From Candidatus Falkowbacteria bacterium (GTDB lineage: Bacteria > Patescibacteriota > Patescibacteriia > Patescibacteriales > UBA12465), in NCBI GenBank assembly GCA_037137655.1, contig JBAXJX010000001.1:353188-417187 (forward strand): DNA of 64,000 nucleotides. Reading direction: 5' to 3'. How positions within the stretch are numbered: position 1 is the stretch's first letter; the number at the start of each line of letters is the position of its first letter. A model generated the notes under the pieces. It ran no database searches and had not been told where the DNA came from. It worked only from the letters and a program-made list of their open reading frames with translations. The translations under genes were made by a program, and so were the position numbers. This document shows positions 32,240-51,344 of this stretch, one piece after another.

Positions 32240-32695
32240 TTATCTAGTAACACTAATTGTTTGTGCTACACCAGAAATTGCTTCAGCCCCTGGAGCAGTA
32301 ACTGTAATACGGCTACTTGTAGTTTTGATTACAGTGTAACCAGTACTAGTAACTGAATAAGAGATTGGATCATAAGGCATAGCAACTAAATAAGTTGAGC
32401 TAGCAGTTAACACTGACAAATCAACTAAACCAGTGCAAGATTGACCAGTTTGACAAATTGTTGAAGTAGCCGAAGATGTTGGAATTGTTGATGGAAAACT
32501 ACCGTTATCAATGTTGTATTGATAAATTGCATTCAAAATCGTGTTTACATCCATTTTGCGTTGTGAGTTGCGAGTAGCAGCTAACTGACGATTTGGATTA
32601 ATCGCTAAAATAACGATACCGGCTAAGATTGCAATCATAGCAACAACTAACAAGATTTCTAACAACGTAAAACCTGCTTGGCTTTTTGTTTTCAT
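32240..32695 (-). CDS. Type IV pilin (candidate major pilin)
   Basis: Class III signal MKTKSQAG|FTLLEILLVVAMIAILAGIV (G-1, F+1, E+5). 151 aa. Last gene of the pilus operon, with its own strong terminator. Confidence 0.85.
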   Translation of the reverse strand: MKTKSQAGFTLLEILLVVAMIAILAGIVILAINPNRQLAATRNSQRKMDVNTILNAIYQYNIDNGSFPSTIPTSSATSTICQTGQSCTGLVDLSVLTASSTYLVAMPYDPISYSVTSTGYTVIKTTSSRITVTAPGAEAISGVAQTISVTR

Positions 32696-32738
32696 AATTT
32701 TTGAAAAATTATTTTTATTAAATTATAGGTTTCAAAAT

Positions 32739-33167
32739 TTAATCTGAGACCTCTAACCACGAAACAATGTTAATCGTGGGATCTATTTGATTTATTAAAA
32801 TAGTTGTTTTACGCACCAGAATTCCAACAGTACTCGAAGCAACAATCGTGCGATTTGTGCCGCCAGTATTAGTAACGGTATATCCACAAGTGCCTTGACC
32901 TAAGGTGATAGTGGCACTACCAGTAAACGATGATGATTCCCTGATTTTCTCCAATGCTTCTTCGGTGCAAGCGTTCGTCAATCCTTTAGATTGGTCAGCC
33001 TGACCAACCGTAAAACTGGTACGCGATGATGCTAAGCCTAATAATAAGAGTGAGGCGGTAATAGCGACACCGATAGCGGAGACTACTAATACGCTCAACA
33101 AGGCAACATAAGCATTTAACTCATTATAACATTTTTTAGTTTTATCTACAAATATTTTCATAGTCAA
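32739..33167 (-). CDS. Pilus-associated protein with N-terminal TM helix but no prepilin cleavage motif (PilX-N/ComGG-like position)
   Basis: YVALLSVLVVSAIGVAITASLLLLGL anchor, then a small Thr/Gly-rich domain. Embedded between pilin genes. Confidence 0.4.
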   Translation of the reverse strand: MTMKIFVDKTKKCYNELNAYVALLSVLVVSAIGVAITASLLLLGLASSRTSFTVGQADQSKGLTNACTEEALEKIRESSSFTGSATITLGQGTCGYTVTNTGGTNRTIVASSTVGILVRKTTILINQIDPTINIVSWLEVSD

Positions 33168-33176
33168 AAAATAAAA

Positions 33177-33680
33177 TTAACGTAAAGCCGCTGAACTTAT
33201 AAAAGTTTTAGTAAAGTTATATTCATTACGCCCCGAAGTATTAACACTACTTAAAGTAAATTGAATACGCACACCACCGGGCGTTGATGAGGATCGTGAT
33301 AAATTTAAGAATAACAAATTCGAAGCCAAGACACGACCATTATTTAAATCAACTGCCGCTGTACTAGATTCAGTCATTCTAATTGTGCTACTCGCTAAAT
33401 AAAAAACCGTTGGTGTGGTAGTAGTAATATAAGTATTTACCGACAAAGTTGAGGAGCTAGTTCCAATGCTTGGTGCATTAATGATAGTAGCATTACGCGT
33501 TGTTTGGGTAATAATTTGCATCACCTGCAATCCTTGTTGTTCTACCTCGGCAATGGTTTGATTTTTAATGCGCGCTTCTAACAACATAGCCATAAAAAAA
33601 GACACCGCCAACATTAAAATTGAAGTAATCGCGATATATAATAAAATTTCTAACAAGGTAAAACCTGATTTATTTTTCAT
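33177..33680 (-). CDS. Minor (pseudo)pilin
   Basis: MKNKSG|FTLLEILLYIAITSIL. The ATG at 33678-33680 lies 1 nt after the stop of the upstream gene. Confidence 0.8.
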   Translation of the reverse strand: MKNKSGFTLLEILLYIAITSILMLAVSFFMAMLLEARIKNQTIAEVEQQGLQVMQIITQTTRNATIINAPSIGTSSSTLSVNTYITTTTPTVFYLASSTIRMTESSTAAVDLNNGRVLASNLLFLNLSRSSSTPGGVRIQFTLSSVNTSGRNEYNFTKTFISSAALR

Positions 33681-33681
33681 A

Positions 33682-35430
33682 TTAATCCCAAGTAAAATCA
33701 TACCAAAAATCAGTATCAGCTGAACCGGTACCAACATGGGCCGTTAAAGCTTTACCAACTGGCGTGGTGTACATTAAATTAGTTGCCCCGTTCCAAACAG
33801 CACTGAATAATTGTTGATTAGTATTGGCAAACAAGGCCATAATGTCATTACTCAAAATATCAGGAATAAGTCGTGTCGTTAATGTTTGTGATCCCAGCCC
33901 AGAAATTAAAGTAGCGGCACTATCCCAAGTAGCCGTAGAAGTATTATATTTTTTCAAAAAACCAGCCGTAGTGGATGACAAATCACCAAAAATGGCAATG
34001 GCTGGGCCACCATTAGTATAAGGATAAGCCAAGGCGTTGCTAAGCTGAACACCATTATCAGTTCCAGAGACAGATGTTAAAACATTATTGGTCGGTACGG
34101 TAATTGTGGGTGTAAAATCATTTTTAAAACAAACGATTCTAGCCTGAGCAGCAGCATCCTTATTACAGAAAATAAATTCATTAGCTTTAGGATTGGCCGC
34201 AATACTTAGAGCGCCAATATTATTTGTTTGAGTTGCAGTTATTGTCGACGAACTCCAAGTACCGCCACCGCTACCATTGGCCGTAAAAATCTGGGCGGCA
34301 ATATTCTTATTATTACCACCTCTATAAACTAAGCCGCCGATAAGCGGACTATTTGGACTCCAAGTAAAATCAATTTCCTTCTCAGTGTTTATCACGCCGT
34401 TAACATCATGAATAGGGTGGAGCGTCCAAGTGCTACCATTAAAATACTCCGTATCAGCATCTTTGTTTTGATCATAAATAGCTACCATTACTTCATTGGT
34501 TCCTGGCCGATTACGCGCGATAATAAAATTAGGAATGCCGCCGCCATTACCAGACAAATCCGCTAAATTACTTTGTGAGCCCCAAGATGAACCGCTCCAA
34601 ACTACATATTTTGGTATTGTGGCATTATCCGAATAGATGGCCATGAAATTACCATTCGCCAAATAAGCGCCATCAAAGTTTTTGACATCAAGAAAATTTT
34701 TGTTTGTGATAGTGGAAAGAGCTTTAACATTTCCCCAGGTTGAAGTTGTGCCGTTATAAACTTGAGCGTAAAGATATTGAAAAGTACCATCGTAGTGACG
34801 CGAAATAACAATTTTTTCATTCCGGGTCGGCGAAGAATAAACCCTGATGGCGCGAGCATAACGATTAGTCGAAACATCAATATCAGCCAAAGATGAAGTT
34901 GCACTCCAGACACCAGCCGCACTAAATGTTTTAGACCACATTATATCATTTGTAATACCACCAGCACTATAAACCAACATACCGCCGTGACCAACCGGGG
35001 CTGAAGCCACTTGCCAATTAGTTAAATAAGTAACTAAAGAAATTGAGCCACTTCTCTGTCCATTTTGCATCCAAGTAACCGTACTAGTCACCATTTTGCG
35101 ATTAGCACTAATTGTACCAACAGAAATTTGGCGCGTAAAAACACCCAGATTATCCGGAGTAGTAGTTAAGCTCCATTGATTACTAGAAGTTGATAAATAA
35201 TACGTCCCATCAACTAAATTAGTAAAACTAGCATCACGAATGTTACGTGCTGCTTCCAAACCTTCCTCGGCCAACATATTGGCGTGTTCACGACCACCAG
35301 CTAGTGAAGTTGATTCTTCGCCATAAAGAAAACCGCTAACCAAAACTGTCACCATAATAACAAAAATTGAAGCGGCTAGTAAGGCCTCAACTGTCGAAAA
35401 TCCTGTCTTTTTATGTAAAATATTTTTCAT
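33682..35430 (-). CDS. Large pilin-like protein, paralogue 1 (582 aa): prepilin N-terminus + repeat (propeller-like) domain
   Basis: MKNILHKKTG|FSTVEALLAASIFV. About 8 repeats of roughly 50-55 aa ending in [YFW]NG..[ST]W-type turns. C-terminus DFWYDFTWD. I chose the internal ATG at 35428-35430, so the track ORF extension to 35553 is rejected. Confidence 0.75.
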   Translation of the reverse strand: MKNILHKKTGFSTVEALLAASIFVIMVTVLVSGFLYGEESTSLAGGREHANMLAEEGLEAARNIRDASFTNLVDGTYYLSTSSNQWSLTTTPDNLGVFTRQISVGTISANRKMVTSTVTWMQNGQRSGSISLVTYLTNWQVASAPVGHGGMLVYSAGGITNDIMWSKTFSAAGVWSATSSLADIDVSTNRYARAIRVYSSPTRNEKIVISRHYDGTFQYLYAQVYNGTTSTWGNVKALSTITNKNFLDVKNFDGAYLANGNFMAIYSDNATIPKYVVWSGSSWGSQSNLADLSGNGGGIPNFIIARNRPGTNEVMVAIYDQNKDADTEYFNGSTWTLHPIHDVNGVINTEKEIDFTWSPNSPLIGGLVYRGGNNKNIAAQIFTANGSGGGTWSSSTITATQTNNIGALSIAANPKANEFIFCNKDAAAQARIVCFKNDFTPTITVPTNNVLTSVSGTDNGVQLSNALAYPYTNGGPAIAIFGDLSSTTAGFLKKYNTSTATWDSAATLISGLGSQTLTTRLIPDILSNDIMALFANTNQQLFSAVWNGATNLMYTTPVGKALTAHVGTGSADTDFWYDFTWD

Positions 35431-35431
35431 A

Positions 35432-37216
35432 TTAATCCCAGGTAAAATCATACCAATAATCTTCATCGGCCGAGCCACTACCCGTATGAGATACCAAGGC
35501 TTTACCGACTGGAGTAGTATAAATTGTGCTACTCGCACTATTCCAAAATACACTAAATAATTGCTGACTAGTATTAGCTAGTAATATTAAAATATCATCA
35601 CTTTGATTATCCGGAATTAAACGAACGGTTTCCAACGTAGCCCCCAAAGCGGCAATCGAAGTGCTGGCACTATCCCAAGTTACCGTGCCGGAATTATATT
35701 TTTTCAAAAGCGCCGAGCTAGTAGAAACATCTGAATAAACTGAAATGGCTGTAGTAGTATTTATCCCAAAAGCATTGTCGTAACTGCGTTGAATGCCAGT
35801 GTCTGAGTTGCTCGTTAAAGTATTGTTAGTTGGCACACTTATCGCTGGCGTAAAATCACTTTTGTAACAAATAATTCTCGGAGTAGTGTTCGCGTCTTTA
35901 TCACAAAAAATAAATTCACTAGCCTTAGGGTTGGCTGTAATATCTAATGCTCCAATATTGCTAGTTTGAACACCAGTAGCAATCGCTGTACTCCAGGTGC
36001 CGCCACCACTACCATTGGCCGTAAAAATTTTTAGACCAATTTTTTTGGAGTTAGCCCCTGTATAAATCAAACCACCGATCAAAGAATTGTTAGGGCTCCA
36101 AGCAAAATCCACAAACTTTTTGGTCGCTAGCGGCGCTGAAACATCATGTGATACTGGACCAGACCAATTAGTTAGCGTATAAGTTCCGCCGTTAAAGTAT
36201 TCCGTATTTGCATCCGAAGCTTGATCAAAAGTCGCCACCATCACCTCATTTGTACCTGGTCGATTACGCGCAACAATAAAATTAGGAATACCACCAGTTG
36301 CTAAAGGATTGATACTGTTTTGCGCCCCCCAAGATGTACCATTCCAAATTCTATATTTAGTTGTCGTCGAGTTATCTGAATAAAGCGCCATAAAATCACC
36401 ATTGGCTAAATAGGTTCCATCAAAATTTTGCACATCCAAATAAGTCGTAGCATTCCAACTTGATAGTAATTGTACATTTCCCCAGCTTGAACTAGCGCTA
36501 TTATAAACTTGGCTATAAATATATTGCGTCGTACCATTGTAATGACGTGAGATGGCAATTTTTTCTTGGCGCGAGTTAGAAGAGTATAAAGTTAGAGCCC
36601 GAGCATAACGATTAGTGGTAGAAGTACTTACATCCGCCATAGAAGATGTGGCACTCCACACCCCAGCCGCACTCAGAGTTTGATAAACCATATTTTCATT
36701 ACTTGAAGCGCCAATGCTGTAAACCAACATACCACCATGGGCCGTAGGAGTTGTTGCTACCTGCCAATTAGTTAACAAGGTTGTAAGCGAAATAGTCACA
36801 TTTTGTTGTCCGCCTTGCAACCAAGAAACCGTGCTGGTTACCACTTTGCGTTTAGCATCGATTGTGCCAATTGAAATTTGGCGCGTAAAAATACCTAGAT
36901 TATCCGGAGTACTTGTTAGACTCCATTGATTACTAGAAGTTGATAAATAATATGTCCCATCAACTAAATTAGTGAAACTAGCATCACGAATATTACGCAC
37001 CGCCTCCAAGCCACCTTCTGCCAACATATTGGCGCGCGCTCTATTACCAGCTAAAGTAGTAGCTTGTTCACCATAAAGAAAACTAGCCACCAAAGAAACA
37101 ACCAGCAACACAAAAATTGAAGCGGCCAATAAAACCTCAGTCGTTAAAAAAGCTCGGCGCTTAGTAGTTAACCGTGCCCTTGCTATTAATTGTGAGAATG
37201 CGTGTCGAGGAAACAT
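35432..37216 (-). CDS. Large pilin-like protein, paralogue 2 (594 aa)
   Basis: Collinear with paralogue 1 at a 1750-nt offset. The leader MFPRHAFSQLIARARLTTKRRA|FLTTEVLLAASIFV has Ala at -1. The only in-frame start I found is the ATG at 37214-37216, overlapping the upstream gene by 56 nt. Confidence 0.7.
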   Translation of the reverse strand: MFPRHAFSQLIARARLTTKRRAFLTTEVLLAASIFVLLVVSLVASFLYGEQATTLAGNRARANMLAEGGLEAVRNIRDASFTNLVDGTYYLSTSSNQWSLTSTPDNLGIFTRQISIGTIDAKRKVVTSTVSWLQGGQQNVTISLTTLLTNWQVATTPTAHGGMLVYSIGASSNENMVYQTLSAAGVWSATSSMADVSTSTTNRYARALTLYSSNSRQEKIAISRHYNGTTQYIYSQVYNSASSSWGNVQLLSSWNATTYLDVQNFDGTYLANGDFMALYSDNSTTTKYRIWNGTSWGAQNSINPLATGGIPNFIVARNRPGTNEVMVATFDQASDANTEYFNGGTYTLTNWSGPVSHDVSAPLATKKFVDFAWSPNNSLIGGLIYTGANSKKIGLKIFTANGSGGGTWSTAIATGVQTSNIGALDITANPKASEFIFCDKDANTTPRIICYKSDFTPAISVPTNNTLTSNSDTGIQRSYDNAFGINTTTAISVYSDVSTSSALLKKYNSGTVTWDSASTSIAALGATLETVRLIPDNQSDDILILLANTSQQLFSVFWNSASSTIYTTPVGKALVSHTGSGSADEDYWYDFTWD

Positions 37217-37595
37217 TTGATATTAAAGTGATTGTCCCGGTAGCTACTGGCATCCCGGAAAATTTATTAAAAATAATTTGCGTGCTCGTAGACGGATTAA
37301 CGCTATTGGGCATATCTGCAACCTCGTCATAAGTAGCGTCATGACCACTATAATTTGTTCCTTTAAAAATAGTAACATTGGCGGTTTGGACATAAACACC
37401 CCAAGCGCTGTCGCCGCTAGAAGACTGAGCTAAAGATTGAGCGCGGCGCAAACTTTGAGCTACAGTTACAACGGCCACGTCCAAATCACTCCGACTTTGA
37501 AATGACTGATAAATTGGGATAGTAGTTCCGACAATAATAATTATCATTGCCATTGAAAGAAGGACCTCCATTAATGTAAACCCGCGTTTAACCAT
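37161..37595 (-). CDS. Minor (pseudo)pilin
   Basis: MVKRG|FTLMEVLLSMAMIIIIVG. 144 aa. The start lies 1 nt after the pilC stop. Confidence 0.8.
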   Translation of the reverse strand: MVKRGFTLMEVLLSMAMIIIIVGTTIPIYQSFQSRSDLDVAVVTVAQSLRRAQSLAQSSSGDSAWGVYVQTANVTIFKGTNYSGHDATYDEVADMPNSVNPSTSTQIIFNKFSGMPVATGTITLISNVSSTRILTINSKGTVNY

Positions 37596-37596
37596 A

Positions 37597-38691
37597 TTAT
37601 TGTTGTGAGCCCATACCGCCTAAAAGATTGTAAATTGGCATAATAATTGCTAAGGCCACACCAATAACTGCAAACCACACGATAATTAACAATAGCGGCT
37701 CTAGAATAACGGTTAAATCTCGAACGGTTGTTTCGGTTTTAGCTTCATAATTAGAGCCAACTTTCATTAAAGCATCAGCCAGAGTACCGGATCGTTCGCC
37801 GGCAATAATCAATTTTTGAATTGAACTTGGAATTAAGTGGCGAGAGCCATGATAGGCATCAAACGATTGTTGAAAAGAATTTCCGTCTTCCAAGTTCTTC
37901 CCTAAAAATTTATAAAACTTTTTATAACGATAAGTATCACAAGATTGGATTAAAGAATTAACTGATTGTGTAATTGGTAATCCGGCTGCCAATAAAATTC
38001 CCAACAAATAACCGAAGCGTGACAACTCAACCTCACGCATTAAACGACCAACACCCGGCACAAGAAATAAAATTCCCTGACCAATACGCTTGGACCCCGG
38101 AAAGAAAAAAATAAAATAAGCTAGTGCTGTTATCGTTAAAATTATGGTCGGCACCGCTATCACACCATGACTACCTAGAAAATTAGAAAAAGTGATTAAT
38201 AAGCGCGTAAGCAACGGTAATTGCAAATGAAGTTGCGTAAAAACATTAGCTAGTTTTGGCAATACAAACCAAGAAATACCAACACCAATAAATCCAGTTA
38301 GACCAAGCACAAAAATTGGATAAGCTACCGCTGATCTAATGCGTGATTTAAAAATACGATTTTTTTGTTGCTCAGCACTAATGATTTGTAAATTTTCTGA
38401 AAGTCGACCAGACTCTTCACCGATACGAGCCAAGGAGATAGAGTGATCAGGAAACAATCCAGAAGATTCGAGTGCGCGCCACAAAGGCGACCCAGCCTCA
38501 ACGTCGTCTTTTATTTGAACAATAACTCTTTGCATGTGACGTGAGTCAATATCACCAGAAACAGCATCAATCGCATCAAAAATACTCATACCAGCGCCAA
38601 CTAGTATACCTAAATTTTCCATGAAACTATCACGACTCTTGCCTAAACCGACAGTGGATAGTGAATGACCAATTTTTTTAAAAATATTCAT
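37597..38691 (-). CDS. pilC: Type IV pilus platform protein (GspF/PilC family)
   Basis: Two GspF-type repeats (GSPLWRALESSGLFPDHSISLARIGEESGRL and GNSFQQSFDAYHGSRHLIPSSIQKLIIAGERSGTL) and 3 TM helices. Confidence 0.9.
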   Translation of the reverse strand: MNIFKKIGHSLSTVGLGKSRDSFMENLGILVGAGMSIFDAIDAVSGDIDSRHMQRVIVQIKDDVEAGSPLWRALESSGLFPDHSISLARIGEESGRLSENLQIISAEQQKNRIFKSRIRSAVAYPIFVLGLTGFIGVGISWFVLPKLANVFTQLHLQLPLLTRLLITFSNFLGSHGVIAVPTIILTITALAYFIFFFPGSKRIGQGILFLVPGVGRLMREVELSRFGYLLGILLAAGLPITQSVNSLIQSCDTYRYKKFYKFLGKNLEDGNSFQQSFDAYHGSRHLIPSSIQKLIIAGERSGTLADALMKVGSNYEAKTETTVRDLTVILEPLLLIIVWFAVIGVALAIIMPIYNLLGGMGSQQ

Positions 38692-38695: not shown

Positions 38696-40366
38696 TTAAA
38701 CTATTTTTTTATCAAGATTTATTACTGGTGGTTCAGCCACACGAAGTAATTCATCTAAGGTGGTGATACCACCTTTAACCTTTTCAATGCCATCCTCAAA
38801 CAAAGATAGTGTTCCCTGCTTTCGGGCCAAATCCCAAACCTCGATTGAGGATGGAGACTTCAAAATTAATTCGCGCATCTCTTGGGTGTTTTTAATAAAT
38901 TCAAAAATAGCAGTCCGACCGCGAAAACCAGTGCCGTCACAAGTTGGACAACCTTTACCCTCGTACATTATAGCCTCCTTTTTTCCAAAAGCAGCTTTAG
39001 TCCAATAATCATTTAATGGAATTTTAGAAAGTGGGACTGTAACACTACGACGACAGTTTGTACAAATTTTGCGCACAAGACGTTGAGCTACGATTAACTC
39101 CAAGGTTGAAGACAATAAAAACTCTTCCGCCCCCATATCTAAAAGGCGTGGAATAGCCGTTGCAGCATCGTTAGCATGAAAGGTTGAAAACAATAAATGA
39201 CCAGTTAAAGCAGCGTTAATTGAAATTTCCACTGTTTCCTCATCACGAATTTCACCCACCAAAATTATATCCGGATCCTGACGAACAATAGAGCGTAAAC
39301 CTTTAGCGAAAGTTAAACCAGTTTGTTGGTTTACTTGAATTTGATTAATACCTAACATTTTATATTCCACTGGATCCTCAATAGTAGTAATGTTAACATC
39401 TGGTTCATCTAAAATTTTCAACAAAGAATAAAGAGTGGTTGTTTTACCAGAACCAGTTGGACCAGTAACCAAGATCATGCCAAAAGGTTTATTGGAGGCA
39501 ACTTTAAATATTTCTTGGTTCTCTTGTGATAGACCTAATTCCGATAAAGTAAGATTTTGCACATAAGCCGAAAGAACGCGCAATACCACCTTTTCCCCGT
39601 CAACCGTTGGCACAATTGAGGTACGCAAATCAACAATATTATCAACATCTTCATAGCGCATCGAACCGTCTTGAGCGGCAAAATGTTCGTCGATTCTTAA
39701 ATGACTTTGAACCTTAATACGATTTAAAATATTCTCATAATATTCCCGTGGGATACGACCAGCTTCCTGCAAAACACCATCAACTCGAAAACGCACCAAA
39801 ACACGGTCACGTTGTGGCTCAAGATGAATATCGGAAGCATGATAAGTTAAAGCATCTAAAATAATTTGTTCAATAATTTCCGGAGCAACACGTTTTTGAG
39901 TAGTAATAATTTGAGAAAATCTTGTCGCTAATGATTTACGGTATTGAGCTAAAGCTGAGTCAATATCATCACCACCAGAATAACATAAAACGATTTTCTT
40001 TTTTGGAAAAATTGGAGTTAAGGCTTCAATAATGCCGGGTTGCATCGGATTATCAGTTGTAATATAAATAACAGATTTCTTTTCAGTAAAAAAAATGGTG
40101 CGAAATTGCATAGCAATATCTTGCGGAATCATCATTATTTGCTCATGTGATGGCATGTTAATGTTAAGATTGGCATATGGCACGGCAAAAGCCTCAGCGA
40201 TCGCCTGATCCAAAATATCACGAGAAATTAATCCCTCGGATAATAAATATTCCACAATTGAAGATTCTCTTTTTTTAGCAAATTCTTCGGCAGTGGCAAT
40301 ATCATCCTCACTGACATAATTACCTTTAAGCAAGGCTTGCTTGATTGTAGCATCATCGAATTTCAT
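38696..40366 (-). CDS. pilB: Type IV pilus assembly ATPase (GspE/PilB family)
   Basis: N-terminal T2SE-N domain, Walker A GPTGSGKTTT, Asp/His boxes, tetracysteine CTNC..CPTC. Confidence 0.95.
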   Translation of the reverse strand: MKFDDATIKQALLKGNYVSEDDIATAEEFAKKRESSIVEYLLSEGLISRDILDQAIAEAFAVPYANLNINMPSHEQIMMIPQDIAMQFRTIFFTEKKSVIYITTDNPMQPGIIEALTPIFPKKKIVLCYSGGDDIDSALAQYRKSLATRFSQIITTQKRVAPEIIEQIILDALTYHASDIHLEPQRDRVLVRFRVDGVLQEAGRIPREYYENILNRIKVQSHLRIDEHFAAQDGSMRYEDVDNIVDLRTSIVPTVDGEKVVLRVLSAYVQNLTLSELGLSQENQEIFKVASNKPFGMILVTGPTGSGKTTTLYSLLKILDEPDVNITTIEDPVEYKMLGINQIQVNQQTGLTFAKGLRSIVRQDPDIILVGEIRDEETVEISINAALTGHLLFSTFHANDAATAIPRLLDMGAEEFLLSSTLELIVAQRLVRKICTNCRRSVTVPLSKIPLNDYWTKAAFGKKEAIMYEGKGCPTCDGTGFRGRTAIFEFIKNTQEMRELILKSPSSIEVWDLARKQGTLSLFEDGIEKVKGGITTLDELLRVAEPPVINLDKKIV

Positions 40367-40444: not shown

Positions 40445-40837
40445 CTAAGCTAAGGCCTTTTTTACATCATTAATAATGTCAGCTAAATGCACATCGGCTT
40501 TAACATAAGTTGCAGTCACACCGAGATGAATGTAGGACTGAATTTTATCCGGACTAGCTGTATTGGAGACCACAAAAATTGGAATATTTTTAAACTTATC
40601 ACTACTTTTCAACATAATCACAAAATCCAAACCATCAGACTCGCCCAAAAGATAGTGATCCAACCAAATAGCATCAATTTTGTCAGGATTATCTAAAACT
40701 GCTAAAGCGGCATGCACCGAATTAACAGCGAAAACTTCGAAGCCAGCATAAGTTAATTTATCCTTAACAACCTCCTGTAAAGATGGTTCGTCTTCTAGAA
40801 CTAAAATTCTAAATTTTTCATTTTTATTTACAGTCAT
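40445..40837 (-). CDS. Single-domain response regulator (receiver only)
   Basis: 130 aa. ILVLEDE, IWLDHYL (acceptor Asp), VVSNT, YVKA. No output domain. Confidence 0.85.
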   Translation of the reverse strand: MTVNKNEKFRILVLEDEPSLQEVVKDKLTYAGFEVFAVNSVHAALAVLDNPDKIDAIWLDHYLLGESDGLDFVIMLKSSDKFKNIPIFVVSNTASPDKIQSYIHLGVTATYVKADVHLADIINDVKKALA

Positions 40838-41221: not shown

Positions 41222-41291
41222 ATATTTTTACAAAAATTTTCTAATATAATTATAACAAAAAATAAACTTTCCGACAAGAAAAATTATAAAA

Positions 41292-44053: not shown

Positions 44054-44099
44054 AATATTATTATACTAAATACCACCTTAACAAGCAATTAACCCCGCC

Positions 44100-44141
44100 A
44101 ACAAAAAATGCCAAAAAATTATAGAAATTAATTGGCATTTT
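44100..44141 (-). terminator. Possible terminator
   Basis: aatgccaa (44107-44114) pairs with ttggcatt (44132-44139), followed by a T-run on the minus strand. The loop is long (17 nt). Confidence 0.4.
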
Positions 44142-44167: not shown

Positions 44168-44539
44168 CTAGATATGCATGGCATTGATCTCGGCCGCACT
44201 TATAACCGTGATACCATGACTTTTAGCGTAAGCTTCGACTTTTTTAATATAAGCGTTGCGAATAGTTGCGCTATAATCAAAGCTTGAGAACCTATTGATA
44301 ATCTTTAAAGCGGAGGCGTCCCACTTTAATGATGTTTTAGCACTAGAGCTTGAAGTAGTTTTCTTGGCAACTTTCTTAACAACTTTTTTCACAGTCTTTT
44401 TCTTAACAACTTTTTTAGCTTTAACAACAGTTTTTACCGTCTTTGCGGTGCCTGCCGTTGTCGCCGCACTAACCGGGGCAATGCCAATAAAAAAGCTAAG
44501 AAGCAAAATTAAAGTAAGTCCTGATATAATTTTTTTCAT
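44168..44539 (-). CDS. Secreted Lys-rich protein, unknown function
   Basis: Signal peptide ..APVSA|A, then VKTVVKAKKVVKKKTVKKVVKKVAKKT, then a small folded-looking C-terminus. Confidence 0.5.
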   Translation of the reverse strand: MKKIISGLTLILLLSFFIGIAPVSAATTAGTAKTVKTVVKAKKVVKKKTVKKVVKKVAKKTTSSSSAKTSLKWDASALKIINRFSSFDYSATIRNAYIKKVEAYAKSHGITVISAAEINAMHI

Positions 44540-44566: not shown

Positions 44567-45055
44567 TTATTTTGCAGTTGATGTTGCAGCGTCAGCTGTT
44601 GTTACAGCAGCAGCTTTAGCGGCTTTCAAATCAGTCATAGCACTAGCGTAGGCTGTTTTTCTAGTTGCTTTAGCAGCAGCAGTTGCATCTTTACGAGCTT
44701 TTAGGGCAGCAGCTTTAGCTACTTTGTCTTTTCCAGCAACTTTAACAGCAGCAGCATATGTAGTGTTAGCATCTTTTACGCTAGCCTTGTAAGCAGTGTT
44801 AGCTGATTTAATAGCGGCAGCATAAGCTTGGTTGGCGCTTTTAACAGCGGCTGTATTTACATTAGTTTTTTTAACAGTTTTAACGATATTTTTTTTAACA
44901 ACTTCTTTTTTAACAACTTCTTTTTTAACAGTTCTAACAACAAGCTTAGGGTTATAAGATGTTACAACACCAGTACTGGTTTCAGCTGCCATGGCTGGAG
45001 AAGCAGCAATCGCTACTAAAGCTAAGCTCATAATCAATAAATTTACTTTTTTCAT
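44567..45055 (-). CDS. Secreted Ala/Lys-rich repeat protein, unknown function
   Basis: Signal peptide ..SPAMA|A. VKKEVVKKEVVKKNIVKTVKK, then 11-residue repeats. Confidence 0.5.
   Translation of the reverse strand: MKKVNLLIMSLALVAIAASPAMAAETSTGVVTSYNPKLVVRTVKKEVVKKEVVKKNIVKTVKKTNVNTAAVKSANQAYAAAIKSANTAYKASVKDANTTYAAAVKVAGKDKVAKAAALKARKDATAAAKATRKTAYASAMTDLKAAKAAAVTTADAATSTAK
44747..44845 (-). repeat. Three tandem 33-nt (11-residue) coding repeats
   Basis: VKSANQAYAAA / IKSANTAYKAS / VKDANTTYAAA. Confidence 0.7.
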
Positions 45056-45068
45056 AATCTTTTTTTAA

Positions 45069-45449
45069 TTAATAAATATTAAATAGTTGACGACGATAAC
45101 GACGCGCAATTTTTACGGCATACATTAACAATCCCAAATTAATAAACCAGAGTGCCATCTCGATTATTGGTAAAACCTCATTTAGACCACTAAAGAGATT
45201 AAATACGTAATCAAGACTAAAATCAAAATCACTTATCAGGGCTTTCACCACTGTTAGCGCTTCGGTTTCAGCAATCTGGCCATAAACATGAAGACTTAGG
45301 AACACAAAAACAAAAGATAGGGCGAAGAAAGTTACTAGTAAATAAAATCTAAATTTTATAACCAATAACTGCTTTTTAATCCTCAGCCTTAAATCAGTCG
45401 GAATCTCTTCCGCTGGAACATTTTTAAGTTGTTCTAATAATTTATCCAT
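45069..45449 (-). CDS. Membrane protein downstream of the ECF sigma factor (candidate anti-sigma)
   Basis: Called by position only. About 35-aa cytoplasmic N-terminus, then 2 TM helices. No HxxxCxxC motif. Confidence 0.35.
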   Translation of the reverse strand: MDKLLEQLKNVPAEEIPTDLRLRIKKQLLVIKFRFYLLVTFFALSFVFVFLSLHVYGQIAETEALTVVKALISDFDFSLDYVFNLFSGLNEVLPIIEMALWFINLGLLMYAVKIARRYRRQLFNIY

Positions 45450-45471
45450 ACATTTATTACCGTCTACGATT

Positions 45472-46014
45472 TTAATTGATTTTTTTCAATAACTCGGCCT
45501 TGGCGCGAGAAATATTGGTTTTAACCGTATTAAGCGGTATTTGTAAGATTTCACTAATTTCAACATAGCTAAAGCCTTGTTGATAATAAAGCCTGATAAC
45601 ACTCTCGTGACCCGACTTTAAGGATTTTAAAGCATTCTCCAAATCTAAATTGTTAATCTGCTCTATACTGTAATACGACAAGGAGAGTTCATTTGTTTCA
45701 AACTCAGCCGCTTCATCAATTTCTTGGGTTTTAGGTAGTCTTTTTTGCTTCTTTAACCAATCGTAAGCCGTATTCGTGGCAATCTTATATAACCAAGCAC
45801 GGAAATTTTTATCAGTATCTATTTTACTCCGGTTTTTATAAACCTTAATGAAAGTGTCTTGCGTCAAATCAAGAGCGTCATCAGAGTTACCAAGCAAACG
45901 ATAAAGATGATTATAAATTGCCGCCTGGTAAAAACTAACCATAGCATCAAAAGCTTTTAGGCTTCCCCGCTTAGCCGCAACAATTAAATTTTCATCAAAC
46001 ACCTGGGCTTCCAT
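45472..46014 (-). CDS. ECF-type RNA polymerase sigma factor (sigma-70 family)
   Basis: Region 2 (DALDLTQDTFIKVYKN..FRAWLYKIATNTAYDWLKK) and region 4 (VIRLYYQQGFSYVEISEILQIPLNTVKTNISRAK). Confidence 0.9.
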   Translation of the reverse strand: MEAQVFDENLIVAAKRGSLKAFDAMVSFYQAAIYNHLYRLLGNSDDALDLTQDTFIKVYKNRSKIDTDKNFRAWLYKIATNTAYDWLKKQKRLPKTQEIDEAAEFETNELSLSYYSIEQINNLDLENALKSLKSGHESVIRLYYQQGFSYVEISEILQIPLNTVKTNISRAKAELLKKIN

Positions 46015-46043
46015 TCTATTTCGAGGTATTAATTTTTAAACGA

Positions 46044-46394
46044 TTAAATTTTTTCAAATTTCACACTTAAAATTGGACCGTATTTATTATTTTTTTCATC
46101 CGTAATCTCAATCTTCTCACCCTTAATAATTTGGGATAAGGCCATATTGCTAAGCATTTCTTTATCTGAGGCAATGTAAGTTTTTATTTCATCAATTTTA
46201 TCAAATTCTTCTTTTAAATCTGACTCTAGAACTGATTGGATTTTCTTTTTTTTCTCCTTAAGTTCTTTTAATTCCTCTAGGACTAATTGGTATTCTTGAG
46301 AATTAATCAAAACGCTTTTGTGAATGTCTTTTAAGATCTTTTGTTCACCTTGTTTTTCTCGAATACGATTAAAAATGTCTTGCACTTCTGCCAT
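46044..46394 (-). CDS. Small coiled-coil protein, unknown function
   Basis: 116-aa Glu/Lys-rich ORF between the kinase and sigma genes. Confidence 0.4.
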   Translation of the reverse strand: MAEVQDIFNRIREKQGEQKILKDIHKSVLINSQEYQLVLEELKELKEKKKKIQSVLESDLKEEFDKIDEIKTYIASDKEMLSNMALSQIIKGEKIEITDEKNNKYGPILSVKFEKI

Positions 46395-46462
46395 AATTTT
46401 ATGATAAAATTTTATTATAAGAGAAGAATATTATAGCATCTTGTAGCGCTAATTACAAAGGC

Positions 46463-48880
46463 TTATTTTTGGTCTTTTTTTAGCGCTATTACCGTCTTAC
46501 CAGAACTAAGCGGTAAATTAATGAAGAAGGTTGTACCGATACTCTCGGTTGATTCAAACCAAATTTTACCACCCAAACGCTCAACAATAGCCTTGACTAT
46601 ATATAGCCCCAGACCGTTGCCGTCAGTGAAAAAAAGTTTGGCATTATTAGAACGAAAAAGCTTATTAAAAACCATGTCATGATCAGTACTTGGAATACCA
46701 ATTCCCTCATCTTTAACAACTATGACGATATTTTTTTCAGCTTCATTTAAACTTATTGATAAATCAACTTTTTTGCCAGCTGGTGTGTAATTGGTAGCAT
46801 TTGATAAAAGATTTTGAAAAACCATGCGCACTTGATCAGGGTCAGCCTTGATCATTGGGATATTATCGGCAATATTTTCCTTAAACTTTATTTTTTTATC
46901 TTGCATGATCATTTTTTGCTCCTCGATCACGTTACGAGCCAGTGCTGCCAAATCAACATCTTTTGGTTTATTTACAAAAGTGCCCATGTCTAGGCGTGAG
47001 ACATTAAGAATAGAATTAACTAAAATAATCATGCGCTTATTACTGCTGCGAATATCATCTAAGTATTCAATTTGTTCAGGATTTAATTCACCAACCTGTT
47101 TACTAATTAACATTTCCGTAAATAAACTAATGGCTGATAATGGAGTGCGCAATTGATGGGAAATCAAAGAGACAAACTCATCTTTAGAGTTCTCTAGTTG
47201 CTTGGCCTTGGTAATGTCACGTTCCACGCCAACAAAATAAACTATTTCATTTTTTTTATTAAACACCGGAGAAACAGTAAAGGCGACCGTATAAATTTCA
47301 CCATTCTTACGACGATTTTGTAACTCGCCAGAAAGAACCTTTTTATCTGTTTTTATAACTTTCCAAAAATTTTGATAAAACTCTAGTGGCATCGGAAGCT
47401 TCCATAAAACAGCTGCTTTTTTACCAACCGCCTCTTCAACTTTATAACCAGTCATTTGTTCAGCCATTTTATTAGCATAAATCACAATACCGTCCGGGTC
47501 GGTGATAACGATATGATCAGAAGACCCTTCCACAGCTAGACGGAATTTCTCCAAATCATTAGCCATAACTTCAGCCTTACGTCTTTCAATATCCATATCA
47601 CCCAACAAGGAAATAAGAGCTCTTTTTTGTTTATCAAGCTCCACGCTCTTTTCAGCTGATTCCGCGGCTTTATCACTAACCTTTTTATCCATCACACCAC
47701 TCCAGTCTTTCAATTTTTGTGCAGTTGTTAAAAAAGATTTAGACAAAGAATTTAATTCATCTTGCGCCTTAATAGTTTTATCATCAAAAGAAATATCAAA
47801 ATTACCAGCACTAATTTTTTCCAAAGCACTGTTAAATTTAGGAATTGGACGATAAATTAAATCAGCCAGTAGACGCGCTAAAAAAATAATTACAATAACG
47901 CTCAAAAAAATCTCAAAAATAGTTTCCCACAAAACTGCTTGAGCATTCGCAGTTATTTCACTCTTATCGATTTTTACAACTACACCCCAATTATTTTCCG
48001 GCAAATAACGCCATGATGACAAAACTTCTTTACCTCGATAATCAGCGGCCTGGCCATAACCCGAATTTCCACGAGCCGCTAGTTGGACTGGATCAGTGCC
48101 GGAATTTCCTAAAATTAAACGATTAAACGCCGCTTTAGGATCAAACCGAAGTGGATTCAAAAACATAGCCGCATCACCATTCTTGTTGTAAATATATCTA
48201 CTGTCGGTAGTTTTTGCGGTGGAGTCAACTAATTTAACCAAGTCAACTTCCAATGTAGCATAAGTTAAATAATCATTATTATTAGAATTATATATAGATG
48301 AGGCACTAACCTCAATCATTATAACGCCCAAAAAATCTCCGCTACTTTCGTATACTGGAGCACTAACCAAGAATTCTCCGCCTTTATCGCCAGGATAAAT
48401 ATCGCCATAATAAACTCCAGCCTGGCCGTTTCTAAAGGCAGTTGAACCAAAGCTGTAAAAATTATCACTAATAGCTCGATGTAATAATTGTTTATTGAGG
48501 TCGTAAACAATTACACCGTCAGAATTAACAAAAAAAATATTATTTGTTCCGTGATACTGTCCGGCCAATGATTTAAATTGCGAATCCAAATAAAGTAATG
48601 ACTTGTCGTATTCTGGACTACCAGGCTTATTACCGGTATCTGAAATTATTGCTAGATTTGATTTAATATAGTCATTATCTTTAATACCAATCTCACCATG
48701 AAAGATGTTAAGATTTAACTGAATATTATTAACCTCATTACTTAAAATTGTATCCAAAAAAGATCTATCTTTATTAGCTAGTAATTGCTGACCACTAAAA
48801 TAAGCCAAAGCCATTAATAAAATCAATGGTACTAAAGCAAGTAATAAATAGGTAAAGAAAATCTTTCTTTTAAACTTCAT
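46463..48880 (-). CDS. Sensor histidine kinase (dCache-like periplasmic domain, HAMP, PAS, HisKA, HATPase_c)
   Basis: TM1, about 290-aa external domain, TM2, HAMP (PIPKFNSALEKISAGNFD). The PAS region is paralogous to the 41.3 kb kinase. H-box SLISHQLRTPL. GNGLGL. Confidence 0.9.
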   Translation of the reverse strand: MKFKRKIFFTYLLLALVPLILLMALAYFSGQQLLANKDRSFLDTILSNEVNNIQLNLNIFHGEIGIKDNDYIKSNLAIISDTGNKPGSPEYDKSLLYLDSQFKSLAGQYHGTNNIFFVNSDGVIVYDLNKQLLHRAISDNFYSFGSTAFRNGQAGVYYGDIYPGDKGGEFLVSAPVYESSGDFLGVIMIEVSASSIYNSNNNDYLTYATLEVDLVKLVDSTAKTTDSRYIYNKNGDAAMFLNPLRFDPKAAFNRLILGNSGTDPVQLAARGNSGYGQAADYRGKEVLSSWRYLPENNWGVVVKIDKSEITANAQAVLWETIFEIFLSVIVIIFLARLLADLIYRPIPKFNSALEKISAGNFDISFDDKTIKAQDELNSLSKSFLTTAQKLKDWSGVMDKKVSDKAAESAEKSVELDKQKRALISLLGDMDIERRKAEVMANDLEKFRLAVEGSSDHIVITDPDGIVIYANKMAEQMTGYKVEEAVGKKAAVLWKLPMPLEFYQNFWKVIKTDKKVLSGELQNRRKNGEIYTVAFTVSPVFNKKNEIVYFVGVERDITKAKQLENSKDEFVSLISHQLRTPLSAISLFTEMLISKQVGELNPEQIEYLDDIRSSNKRMIILVNSILNVSRLDMGTFVNKPKDVDLAALARNVIEEQKMIMQDKKIKFKENIADNIPMIKADPDQVRMVFQNLLSNATNYTPAGKKVDLSISLNEAEKNIVIVVKDEGIGIPSTDHDMVFNKLFRSNNAKLFFTDGNGLGLYIVKAIVERLGGKIWFESTESIGTTFFINLPLSSGKTVIALKKDQK

Positions 48881-48887
48881 ATTTTAA

Positions 48888-49916
48888 TTAAACCTTAGAC
48901 TTTCCGTTCTTCTTATTATTAACGACGTCCTTCGATTCGATTATTCTTAGTTCCCTATCAATCATTATTTTATTAAGTTTCTCTAAGTCAGTATTTTTAT
49001 CCTTAAGTGCGACAATAGCTTGACCACTCTCAACTAATTCTCGACTAATTCTAGTATTATCAGCCACCAATCTATTTATTTTCTCCTTAAAATCATCAAT
49101 TTCCTTTTGATGTGAATCATTTGTCTCCTCTTTGGAGATGCGAAGAGTTTCAACCATACTGTTAAAATTCTTGGCCAAGTCACTCATTTCATCTTTACCT
49201 GATTTAATATCAGCCTTAACACTAAAGTCACCAGCACTAACCTTCATTGCCAAATCATTAAGCATGGCAATTGGTTTTGATAAATTTAAATAAAAAGGAA
49301 TACACAAAAAAATCATGATAATAAAGACTGCCAAAAATGACATGGCAATTTCGCGATACGCTCCAAACAATTGATTATTTAAAGAATCAAAAGAAAATAT
49401 ATAACGCATTACTAGAACGTGCCCACCAGAAATTTCTTTAATCGGCACAAAATACTCTAACACTTTTTGACCCATAAAATCAGACTCATGATAAGATGAT
49501 TCTTCGTTGGTAAGCGCATTGAGAGAGGCTGCATCACTGACCGACCGAACAACATCGCCCGTATATCGCCCAGAACTCAACTCATTGGAGTCAAACAATA
49601 TCCGACCATTAACTGATATTAAAGAGGCATTAATAATATCTTTATTGGTGGCAAATTTTGCTTCCAAACGATCTTTGAAAAATTGAAAATCCTGTTCATC
49701 GGGCTGGGCGTAAAAAGTAATATAATCCTGGTAAATTGACTGGGCACTAAACTCAGAAAATATTTTACCCCGCGTCACAATATCATTATAGAATTCATTG
49801 CGCTGACTGATTAATGAAACCGATGAGAATATCAATAAAGATAAAAATATCAAGATAACCCCAAAGAAACCAATTTTTACAGCCAAACTATTATAATTTA
49901 TTTTAAATTTTTCCAT
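48888..49916 (-). CDS. HAMP-domain membrane protein without an enzymatic output
   Basis: TM1, about 170-aa external domain, TM2, HAMP (KPIAMLNDLAMKVSAGDFSVKADIKSGKDEMSDLAKNFNSMVETL), coiled-coil tail. No H-box or ATPase. Confidence 0.7.
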   Translation of the reverse strand: MEKFKINYNSLAVKIGFFGVILIFLSLLIFSSVSLISQRNEFYNDIVTRGKIFSEFSAQSIYQDYITFYAQPDEQDFQFFKDRLEAKFATNKDIINASLISVNGRILFDSNELSSGRYTGDVVRSVSDAASLNALTNEESSYHESDFMGQKVLEYFVPIKEISGGHVLVMRYIFSFDSLNNQLFGAYREIAMSFLAVFIIMIFLCIPFYLNLSKPIAMLNDLAMKVSAGDFSVKADIKSGKDEMSDLAKNFNSMVETLRISKEETNDSHQKEIDDFKEKINRLVADNTRISRELVESGQAIVALKDKNTDLEKLNKIMIDRELRIIESKDVVNNKKNGKSKV

Positions 49917-49946
49917 ACTTATTACTTATTATTTAATAATAAAATA

Positions 49947-51344
49947 TTATTTTTTATTATTACTATCCAAAATTAATTGAACTCTGGACGCAGCATCATC
50001 TAGGGCTTGCTTAACATCCTTACCAACCCAAGCCGCTTGAATTTGTTCCATTAAAGTTGCTTTAATTTTAGCTGCCTGTAAAACATTTGGTTCTGGAGTT
50101 GAAGAACTAAGTTGGGCAATGAACGGAGCTTTAAATGTATTACTAACCAACACATCCTTATTAGCACTAGAAACTAAATCAACTTTACGATCCGGAATTG
50201 CTTTAATAGTTCTGGCTAATAAATCACCATAACGCGTAGTGCCACTTGGTTGAACATCTTCCGTAAACCAACGTAAGAAATCCCAAGCCGCTTTTTTGTT
50301 TTTAGATTTATTCATAACACCAACGAACCAGCTGTATTGTAATGAATTTGGTTTAGAAAAATATGGCACCGAAGTTACACCAACCTCTTGATCAAATCTA
50401 GTACCCATTTGATCTCTAAAAGTACCTTCTGTCCACGGAGCCACAAAAGCCATGGCAGCTTTATCATTGCTAAAATCCCAAACATTAGAATTGGCGTCGG
50501 TATAACCTTTTTTGAAAAGATCAACAATTGAAGTTAACACCTCAACACCTTTAGCGTCATTAAACATCGGCTTGCTATTATCAGCTGACAAATAGCTACC
50601 ACCATTACTAAATAATAATGATAGAAATGGATCAACCACGGCCCAATCAACACCTTTTGTAAAAGCAAAACCATATTTAATAATATTTCCTTTAGTATCT
50701 TTTTTGGTAATCTTTTTTGCGGCCGCAACCACATCATCCCAAGTTTTTGGCGCCAAAGCATTACCATCAGCGTCAACAATGCCAGCGTCCTTGAACATCT
50801 TTTTATTATAAATCAAAGAATAATCATTAACTTCGCCCGGGATACCCCAAACATTTCCATCAATCACCACACCAGATTTAGAAACATAATTAGCTTCCAC
50901 ATCAGCTTTAATATCTTTTGGTGGAACATCAAGCAAACCCTCTTTAGCATAAGAAACTCCCCAAGGAGAATAGATTTGAAAAATATCCGGAGCCTGATCG
51001 ATATCGTTTAGTAATTTTATCTTAGCTTCATAATCAGCGTAAGGCACAGTCAAAACGCTAATATCCACATTTGGATGAAGTGTCATGTATTCATCAAGAT
51101 ATTGTTTAAATCCCTTTTCCTTTAACACGCCATTTTCATAAACACCTTCTAGTTGATATTTTTCCGTCCAATGGGCAGCGTAAACTAATTTTATTTTATC
51201 ACCGTTTGTCACCGGACTAACAACTGGGTTGTTATTTTTTGGAAGACTAGAGATTTCCGGTTTTGTTTTTATAAATAAAACGATAAACACGGCCACTAGC
51301 ATAAGCAATATGGTCGCTGTTAACAGAACAAGCTTTTTGTTCAT
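49947..51344 (-). CDS. Extracellular solute-binding protein (ABC family-1/sugar type), TM-anchored, with no transporter partners nearby
   Basis: N-terminal anchor. Motifs DIFQIYSPWG, WGIPGEVNDYSLIYNKKMFKDAGI, PKTWDDVVAAAKK are typical of sugar SBPs. Confidence 0.8.
   Translation of the reverse strand: MNKKLVLLTATILLMLVAVFIVLFIKTKPEISSLPKNNNPVVSPVTNGDKIKLVYAAHWTEKYQLEGVYENGVLKEKGFKQYLDEYMTLHPNVDISVLTVPYADYEAKIKLLNDIDQAPDIFQIYSPWGVSYAKEGLLDVPPKDIKADVEANYVSKSGVVIDGNVWGIPGEVNDYSLIYNKKMFKDAGIVDADGNALAPKTWDDVVAAAKKITKKDTKGNIIKYGFAFTKGVDWAVVDPFLSLLFSNGGSYLSADNSKPMFNDAKGVEVLTSIVDLFKKGYTDANSNVWDFSNDKAAMAFVAPWTEGTFRDQMGTRFDQEVGVTSVPYFSKPNSLQYSWFVGVMNKSKNKKAAWDFLRWFTEDVQPSGTTRYGDLLARTIKAIPDRKVDLVSSANKDVLVSNTFKAPFIAQLSSSTPEPNVLQAAKIKATLMEQIQAAWVGKDVKQALDDAASRVQLILDSNNKK

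Follow-up and report, generated by a model that had tools for sequence, protein, structure and literature searches.

A probable mosaic of four gene modules around a receiver-led type IV pilus cluster in Candidatus Falkowbacteria

We analysed a stretch of 64,000 nucleotides (the window) from a Candidatus Falkowbacteria bacterium (GCA_037137655.1, contig JBAXJX010000001.1, positions 353,188 to 417,187), in which the genes between positions 32240 and 51344 encode sensory proteins, an extracytoplasmic function (ECF) sigma factor and a type IV pilus. The original prediction, made from the letters alone, took them for one functional island coupling environmental or host sensing to the deployment of surface fibres. 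Its gene list and order were upheld, with Pfam backing the solute-binding protein (SBP), the HAMP protein, the kinases, the ECF sigma factor, the YibE_F protein, the receivers, PilB, PilC and the pilins. The single island was mostly refuted by synteny, and the link between sensing and the pilus is strongly supported for one part of the region. We consider it probable that the region is a mosaic of four modules set in a longer leading-strand run, in which module D is a Patescibacteria-wide, receiver-led pilus cluster under the control of kinase 2. Judged by gene neighbourhoods, only module D (kinase 2-RR1-RR2-PilB-PilC-five pilin-like genes) is a robust unit, and the other three blocks (A, B and C) occur or are absent independently in relatives.

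The pilus cluster and its receivers

Module D, on the minus strand like all genes of the region, begins with kinase 2 (K2, 41292..42815), for which Pfam gives PAS, HisKA and HATPase domains behind two transmembrane (TM) segments. It is followed by two stand-alone receivers, RR1 (40853..41221, 122 aa, Pfam 2.7e-25) and RR2 (40445..40837, 130 aa, Pfam), which belong to a PilB-adjacent and a kinase-adjacent orthogroup, respectively. The PilB-type assembly ATPase (38696..40366; T2SSE PF00437, 1.2e-119) reaches 485 bits with TIGR02538, below the equivalog cutoff of 676, so that its membership is at family level only. Its MshEN-like N-domain gives a weak match and is without what we take to be the Arg and Gly of the RLG motif that binds cyclic di-GMP, which is consistent, as a point of low weight, with a protein partner rather than cyclic di-GMP as the input to PilB. 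The platform protein PilC (37597..38691) contains two T2SSF repeats (PF00482, 2e-45).

The pilin genes come next, starting with a minor pilin candidate (pilin_a, 37161..37595) that is kept at this position in almost all of the 80 PilB loci described below. We also found two proteins that were not annotated earlier, bigA (35432..37216) and its tandem paralogue bigB (33682..35430, start re-assigned to Met42 of the listed open reading frame, ORF). They have 580-594 aa, are 64% identical over ~580 aa and carry pilin-like N-termini; in bigA a C-terminal domain of ~450 aa, whose fold is unknown, comes after it. The peptide GINMKN recurs at the junction on the downstream side of both. Across the phylum, the N-terminal ~145 aa of these big proteins are conserved and the C-terminal domain varies greatly in length (~140-950 aa) and in type; in one locus (L003) it has LVIVD repeats. 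The two proteins are comparable to PilX1/PilX2 of TM7x and are likely tip-adhesin or host-recognition determinants. The cluster ends with pilin_d (33177..33680, start re-assigned to Met20; N_methyl 1.5e-07 over ORF residues 20-45), orf142 (32739..33167), which has an N-terminal hydrophobic helix, no Pfam match and a position conserved across the phylum, and the major-pilin candidate pilin_e (32240..32695; N_methyl, and GspG-like with 40 bits, below cutoff), often present in several copies in other loci. The N_methyl family (PF07963) is above cutoff for 32240-32695 and 33177-33737 and weak for 37161-37595. The 64 kb window gave no prepilin peptidase (PilD), PilM/N/O or PilT, the genes for which may lie in another part of the contig.

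A scan of GTDB species representatives with a PilB alignment returned 80 PilB loci (PilB identity 48-68%) from Uhr-, Magasanik-, Wolfe-, Kerfeld-, Moran-, Taylor-, Davies-, Nomura-, Berkel-, Dojka-, Peri-, Gracili-, Saccharibacteria and others, and their gene content was determined by phmmer against all window proteins. The order RR1-PilB-PilC-pilin_a-large pilin-like protein-pilin_d-orf142-pilin_e is nearly universal. A receiver gene on the same strand lies immediately upstream of pilB in at least 60 of the 75 loci with at least 600 bp upstream, a lower bound, since some of the apparent negatives have a receiver one gene away, divergent or overlapped by an over-long PilB ORF. The gap between the two genes has a median of 12 bp, with many 4-bp overlaps. 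Among these upstream receivers, 56 are single-domain and 59 score best against RR1. In the 45 fully flanked loci, a PAS kinase was found in 37 (27 downstream of the pilins and 10 upstream), an ECF sigma factor and an SBP gave one match each, both weak, and YibE/F, the small protein cc116 and the secreted proteins of the window gave none. The RR2 group follows the kinase in 16 loci, and the Saccharibacteria loci of the sample read kinase-RR1-PilB-PilC-pilins.

The same association is seen closer to the window. In CP066698 (Falkowbacteria), RR1-K-RR2 is divergent from pilin-PilB-PilC, and in a CG10 Falkowbacteria genome the order is RR1-PilB-PilC-pilins-sensor-K-RR2; neither locus has an ECF sigma factor or an SBP. 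Three gene orders within Falkowbacteria thus keep the kinase, RR1, RR2 and PilB/PilC together. This phylum-wide linkage in several gene orders strongly supports, at the level of gene content, a coupling of sensing to pilus deployment for module D.

RR1 and RR2 represent two distinct orthogroups, with the signatures LDLxMPxxDGF...SNLSQxxD and IWLDYLLG...VVSNTASPDK, respectively. The phospho-acceptor pocket is intact in each, with residues that we take to be the equivalents of D12/D13, D57, T87 and K109 of Escherichia coli CheY. Both are receiver-only proteins, for which Pfam, NCBIfam and PDB sequence searches revealed no DNA-binding or other output domain; no named family was assigned by NCBIfam or PDB to RR1, RR2 or bigA, nor to cc116 or the 126-aa membrane protein described further below. 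Among solved structures, those closest to the two receivers belong to generic receivers, for example PhoP, CheY, RR468 and Spo0F. No CheA (Hpt, P5), methyl-accepting chemotaxis protein (MCP) or CheW domain was found in the window, and both of its kinases are of the HisKA class.

In 54 pilus-linked kinases, the helix that follows the phospho-His in the dimerization and histidine phosphotransfer (DHp) domain is near-invariant (HQLRTPLSxINWYTEMLLAGDAG), and its consensus is identical whether the kinase neighbours RR1 or RR2. A Trp occurs at H+11 in 51 of them and a Gly at H+19 in 40, and K2 has both residues. From this we infer that one kinase type serves both receivers, K2 being that kinase in the window; its adjacency to the two genes and the common consensus are in favour of a putative cognate phosphotransfer from K2 to RR1 and RR2. 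The same family extends to an unusual multi-receiver array in L089 (2843-15269), where a kinase 40% identical to kinase 1 and with a Trp-type DHp precedes four consecutive single-domain receivers. Behind these lie an ORF of 274 aa and a giant one, longer than 3178 aa, for which Pfam gives no match.

We suggest the following mechanism. K2 would sense a membrane or cytoplasmic cue through its PAS domain, autophosphorylate and pass the phosphate to both RR1 and RR2. Control would be post-translational, because neither receiver has an output domain: phosphorylated RR1 would dock on the PilB/PilC motor and turn pilus extension on or off, and RR2 would act as a sink for phosphate or provide a second, antagonistic output, in the way PilH relates to PilG. 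In its general form, this would be an ancient pathway dedicated to the pili of Patescibacteria, in which a PAS-HisKA kinase with lineage-variable sensors (dCache-HAMP, SBPs, CHASE4, MASE3, GAF) phosphorylates a receiver co-translated with PilB that gates the motor directly, the second receiver being an antagonist or sink. We put this general form forward as a tentative possibility, to which we give distinctly less credence than to the mosaic itself.

RR1 and RR2 could instead be Spo0F-like relay intermediates or sinks that lead to a DNA-binding regulator encoded elsewhere and controlling pilin transcription, in the manner of PilS-PilR. A candidate is present in the window, an orphan OmpR-type regulator (REC + Trans_reg_C, 4450-5250, minus strand) with no adjoining kinase; moreover, the structure matches of RR1 include Spo0F (E about 1e-13) and receiver domains of the OmpR/PhoP family, and the last pilin gene has a promoter-like site of its own in the consensus scan (32735-32708, minus strand). 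However, neither the window nor the 80 loci showed a phosphotransferase of the Hpt or Spo0B-like kind. In addition, RR1 is coupled tightly and almost universally to the start codon of pilB, as would suit a receiver made in stoichiometric amounts with the ATPase better than a diffusible relay. We regard such a relay as unlikely and retain direct action on the motor as the working proposal.

The kinase 1 block, the sigma cassette and the YibE/F gene

Module A starts with a membrane-anchored SBP (49947..51344; SBP_bac_1, Pfam 1.4e-31) that has no ABC permease or ATPase gene beside it and has orthologues in equivalent position in L001 (81%) and L088 (686 bits). It is followed by a kinase-less sensor (48888..49916) with the architecture TM-extracellular domain-TM-HAMP-coiled coil (Pfam HAMP), which is similar to WalK in its N-terminal half (residues 2-259 of the NCBIfam WalK model, E = 7.7e-13, a score below cutoff) and is kept with kinase 1 in L001, L088 and L090. 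Kinase 1 itself (K1, 46463..48880) has a dCache-PAS-HisKA-HATPase architecture in Pfam. The last member, cc116 (46044..46394), is a small coiled-coil protein without Pfam or NCBIfam match that moves with K1. It is the best conserved protein of the module, being 89% identical in L001 vs 64% for the adjoining K1, and its orthologue in L088 (179 bits) directly follows K1. We also considered cc116 as a member of the ECF cassette and rejected this, since it follows K1 in L088 and is absent beside the ECF cassettes of L086 and L087.

The closest relative, L001, is a 9.3 kb Logan contig with SBP (81%), HAMP protein (67%), K1 (64%), cc116 (89%), ECF sigma factor (83%), membrane protein (67%), sec1 (43%), K2 (62%), RR1 (79%) and PilB (80%, truncated where the contig ends). 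YibE/F and sec2 are missing from it, as is an RR2 between RR1 and PilB. The contiguity of A, B and D is kept only in this close relative, where, as far as the comparison goes, it is sufficiently explained by common descent. Full-length K1 orthologues are few. L088 (53% identity) reads pilin(N_methyl)-SBP-HAMP-214 aa-K1-cc116 and continues with unrelated genes, and no ECF sigma factor, receiver or PilB lies within 10 kb downstream. L090 (52%) has HAMP-K1 away from PilB and receivers, with an unknown gene and a MarR gene behind it. On these contexts, the block appears to be inherited independently of the sigma and pilus genes.

The original prediction had matched two kinases with two receivers, which is numerically true. 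K2 aligns end to end with K1 residues 290-790 (42% identity) and can thus be described as K1 minus the Cache domain. The two kinases differ in the DHp helix: K1 has a Leu at H+11 (0 of the 54 pilus-linked kinases) and a Lys at H+19 (2 of 54), with ISLF...SKQVG in helix 1, and the K1 orthogroup of the window, L001, L088 and L090 keeps ISLF or INLF, then DKxLG. K1 therefore seems to be re-wired, its DHp specificity surface having changed. The output of K1 and of the co-sensors (SBP and HAMP protein) probably goes to some other partner, for which the orphan OmpR-type regulator at 4450-5250 is a speculative candidate. With the diverged DHp of K1 and this regulator in the window, the match of two kinases to two receivers is probably a coincidence of counts. 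We had also considered K1 as the ancestral pilus kinase, since its dCache architecture and its kinase-less sensors upstream recur with pilus-linked kinases elsewhere, and this was downgraded by the DHp comparison and by the contexts of the K1 orthologues.

It is nevertheless conceivable that K1 and its co-sensors also provide a true input to the pilus receivers, next to that of K2, and that the ECF cassette and YibE/F were inserted between the two halves. Pilus-linked kinases elsewhere are mostly K1-like (~790 aa, dCache) and are often preceded by kinase-less sensors, as dCache-HAMP proteins in L011, L037, L044 and L079, or by NMT1-type SBPs in L015 and L027, with MASE3, CHASE4 and GAF in one locus each, so that the pilus-linked kinase family appears to recruit separate input modules routinely. 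Nor is there, in the window, L001 or L088, a nearby receiver that would belong to K1. Against such an input, the K1 orthogroup differs at DHp positions that are near-invariant in the pilus-linked kinases and lies away from PilB and receivers in L088 and L090; we hold it to be quite improbable.

The analogy with SBP-assisted sensor kinases suggests that module A may sense a ligand through contact between the SBP and the sensor. ChvE-VirA, LuxP-LuxQ and TorT-TorS are such kinases, and the likeness lies in an orphan SBP without transporter genes that adjoins a membrane sensor kinase. In the window, by contrast, the genes for the SBP and the kinase are separated by that for a kinase-less HAMP protein.

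Module B is headed by the ECF sigma factor (45472..46014), which consists of regions 2 and 4.2 only (Pfam PF04542 + PF08281). It scores 110 bits with the NCBIfam model TIGR02937 (sigma70-ECF; cutoff 42.9) and falls well short of the cutoffs of the equivalog models, SigW being the best of them with 111 bits. The next gene encodes a 126-aa membrane protein (45069..45449), an anti-sigma candidate by position only, for which no anti-sigma domain was detected and no Pfam or NCBIfam match obtained. In L001, L086, L087 and the P0136 context, too, it is invariably the gene after the sigma factor. Two secreted Lys/Ala-rich proteins close the block: sec1 (44567..45055; signal peptide and composition seen in the translation), with homologues at the equivalent position in L001, L086 and L087, and sec2 (44168..44539, from the translation), with homologues in L086 and L087 and not detected in L001. 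Both are highly basic, low-complexity Lys/Ala/Val-rich proteins that seem to be cargo of the cassette. A similar histone-H1-like segment, with a weak HC2 match, is found at the N-terminus of a LiaF-like protein at 3002-3985 (plus strand).

Orthologues of the sigma factor at 76%, 70% and 60% identity each precede a homologue of the 126-aa protein and two small proteins, and the surroundings of these cassettes (L086, L087, P0136 context) are unrelated in each: cation efflux, adenylate kinase and RelB/ParE; thioredoxin reductase, G6PD and PAP2; copper ATPase and GreA. In L086 a PilM-type PilB locus lies ~8 kb from the cassette, with unrelated genes in between. Since it recurs in unrelated contexts and is followed by a terminator (44141-44100), the ECF block appears to be a self-contained cassette of sigma factor, possible anti-sigma factor and secreted proteins.

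The original prediction had proposed a search for an ECF-type promoter upstream of the island genes, and none was found before any pilus gene. A de novo search for bipartite motifs upstream of four cassettes returned AT-rich noise only and no common ECF promoter; canonical sigma-W/sigma-E-like patterns occur at or below chance, with none upstream of K2, RR1 or the pilus genes, and the lone sigma-W-like match lies inside the sigma gene, at chance level. The sigma factor most likely controls its own cassette only and is probably not a pilus regulator. In its two-domain sigma factor, small membrane protein and few, presumably co-transcribed, envelope or secreted proteins, the cassette resembles those of SigW- and RpoE-like ECF factors; it differs in that neither an anti-sigma domain nor an autoregulated ECF promoter could be recognised.

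Module C is a single gene for a YibE/F-family membrane protein (42905..44053; Pfam 8.8e-66). It is absent between sec1 and K2 in L001 and from all 45 fully flanked pilus loci. Because L001 is without it, YibE/F seems to be an insertion specific to the lineage of the window. A promoter-like site precedes it (44057-44084, minus strand), the -10 of which ends ~8 nt before the ATG; this suggests a messenger that is leaderless or has a very short leader.

Strand bias, transcription units and surroundings

The ORF list confirmed the minus strand for all genes between 51344 and 32240, and the gaps are short, as predicted (1-114 bp). The ~19 kb unbroken array described earlier is not a unit of that size: the co-directional run comprises 31 consecutive ORFs of at least 100 aa over 31 kb (29318-60652) and passes through housekeeping genes on both sides of 32240-51344. 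It includes a class II aminoacyl-tRNA synthetase, BacA, an RNase T-like exonuclease, both ribonucleotide reductase subunits, TspO, MsrBA, a GH25 lysozyme and DHODH. The GC skew is negative from ~12 kb to the end of the window, matching the expectation for leading-strand bias. As this bias explains both the skew and a run that includes housekeeping genes, co-orientation is uninformative on function. Caution is needed more generally, since long same-strand runs are common in genomes of the candidate phyla radiation (CPR) and can join unrelated modules into apparent islands.

Within this run, four of the seven best minus-strand sigma-70-like sites (10 of 12 positions) fall in intergenic gaps, which make up ~4% of the stretch; these four lie upstream of the SBP, cc116, RR1 and the last pilin gene. 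The SBP candidate (51426..51454, minus strand; TTGCCC-17-TATAAT with TG) is within a 135-bp gap after the RNase T-like gene and is the predicted start of module A. The RR1 candidate (41249..41277, minus strand; TTGTCG-17-TATAAT) has an extended -10, TTTTTTGnTATAAT, which is kept in L001 at equal distance from the ATG. The hairpin closing the ECF cassette (44100..44141, minus strand), graded as weak by the original prediction, is in fact stronger: the fold has -22.4 kcal/mol (z = -4.3), none of 200 shuffles folds as well, and a U-run follows, as in intrinsic terminators. The strong terminator reported after the last pilin gene is real, with a 16-bp stem containing 7 GC pairs and then a T-run (32195..32230, minus strand), and closes the pilus operon. 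No Rfam match was obtained in the window at gathering thresholds. Given the promoter-like sites in the gaps and the -10 of RR1 conserved in L001, several transcription units across the stretch are likely.

These results bear on the idea of one island, in which the SBP, HAMP and kinase inputs and the ECF sigma factor, as the only transcription factor, would jointly drive pilus expression. Pfam indeed gives no other DNA-binding regulator within 32240-51344, as had been stated, and the idea can also draw on the shared direction of all genes, on their short gaps and on the order SBP-HAMP-K1-cc116-ECF-membrane protein-sec1-K2-RR1-PilB retained in L001. However, synteny with L001 is expected by descent at 80% PilB identity, the ECF cassette and the K1 block each stand alone elsewhere, and the ECF match in 1 of 45 fully flanked pilus loci is weak. 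A real terminator follows the cassette, no ECF-type motif precedes any pilus gene, and the same-strand run continues through housekeeping genes on both sides. The original prediction had also named what would refute it, namely sub-blocks that turn up independently and in other contexts in related genomes, and this is the case for three blocks (the SBP-HAMP-K1-cc116 block, the ECF cassette and YibE/F). We consider a single island highly improbable.

Several points also weigh against the mosaic with a motor-directed module D. The contiguity of A, B and D in L001 may still allow co-expression of the modules by read-through, operon boundaries were drawn from consensus scans, and the promoter-like sigma-70 matches in total are not enriched (68 observed vs 71 expected). 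Module A resembles the kinase-less sensors found before pilus kinases, and K1 could cross-talk with RR1 or RR2. The 80 loci were selected by PilB similarity, which limits the result to this PilB paralogue, and the PilM-associated PilB of L086 has no receiver listed alongside. Contact between RR1 and PilB is deduced from gene coupling only, and no direct interaction of PilG or PilH with PilB has been reported in Pseudomonas aeruginosa (PMC11656802), so that the analogy with the Pil-Chp system, discussed below, is no guarantee of direct binding.

Other genes of the window are mentioned here for completeness. A stand-alone PAS protein of 200 aa with a hydrophobic or coiled C-terminal segment (29318-29920, minus strand) lies 2.3 kb downstream of the pilus operon, past the aminoacyl-tRNA synthetase and BacA genes. 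A 408-aa pilin with N_methyl and Gly_rich_2 domains (56543-57769, minus strand) is found 5 kb upstream of the SBP; its homologues lie immediately upstream of the SBP in L088 (5714-6811) and 7 kb upstream of the ECF cassette in L086 (1949-3193). These placements hint at an older common neighbourhood into which other genes were inserted, in the window those for TspO, ribonucleotide reductase and the RNase T-like protein. Directly upstream of the OmpR-type regulator is a 183-aa ORF without Pfam match (5251-5802, minus strand), and PspC and LiaF-like membrane proteins are encoded nearby (2591-3985, plus strand). There is also a tyrosine recombinase of the Phage_integrase family (12134-13132, plus strand). 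Two cell-wall hydrolases, an M23 peptidase (13188-14414, minus strand) and the GH25 lysozyme (58836-59561, minus strand), could target host or self peptidoglycan.

Comparison with known systems

In PilS-PilR of Pseudomonas, Geobacter and Myxococcus, a sensor kinase and a regulator dedicated to pili are encoded in or next to the pil cluster, and PilR is an NtrC-type activator of sigma-54 with AAA+ and DNA-binding domains that controls pilA transcription. Module D shares with it the presence of kinase and response regulator genes within the pilus cluster; however, RR1 (122 aa) and RR2 (130 aa) consist of a receiver only and are not regulators of the NtrC type.

The best precedent for a response regulator acting on the pilus motor rather than on transcription seems to be that of the cyanobacterial PATAN-REC regulators (PixG, PixE-type), which are reported to bind the PilB1/PilC motor (bioRxiv 10.1101/2021.06.11.447907, PMC11181946). 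Regulators of this kind have a PATAN domain and receive their input from CheA-like kinases, whereas RR1 has no extra domain.

Within the phylum, the T4P-1 and T4P-2 loci of Nanosynbacter lyticus TM7x encode PilB, PilC and five pilins, including a large minor pilin, PilX, with an accessory C-terminal domain (PMC11623550). PilX corresponds to bigA and bigB of the window. The account of these loci mentions no receiver or kinase; on the side of the window, PilT, PilM/N/O and PilD are the components not found in its 64 kb. An association of receivers or kinases with pili in Patescibacteria, CPR or Saccharibacteria was not described in the literature searched, which left out most subscription journals; the TM7x two-pilus paper, a CPR protein-family paper and a 2024 review of PilB cofactors do not mention a CPR pilus receiver or kinase. 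Type IV pili are central to the episymbiosis of cultivated Patescibacteria, in host binding, twitching and probably DNA uptake (PMC11623550, PMC9894109, PMC6744442). To the question of how such reduced cells decide on pilus deployment, module D brings a concrete and genetically testable candidate, which rests on the phylum-wide coupling of receiver and pilB genes and on a kinase with an almost invariant partner-recognition helix. The same genes occur in Saccharibacteria, which are now tractable. If the candidate holds, it would provide a route from host or environmental cues to pilus extension, attachment or DNA uptake in episymbionts.

The Pil-Chp system of P. aeruginosa (PilJ-ChpA-PilG/PilH) is similar in placing two stand-alone CheY-like receivers below one kinase in the control of type IV pili. 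One of its receivers promotes the function or localisation of PilB and the other is an antagonist or sink (PMC11656802, PMC10519157). Module D differs from it in three respects: its kinase is a membrane PAS-HisKA protein and not a CheA-type ChpA with MCP and CheW, the RR1 gene lies immediately upstream of pilB instead of in a separate chemosensory cluster, and RR1 and RR2 are below the cutoff of every named NCBIfam family. As far as the literature searched goes, the Patescibacteria-wide cluster of receiver, PilB, pilins and kinase would be a new form of two-component control of type IV pili.

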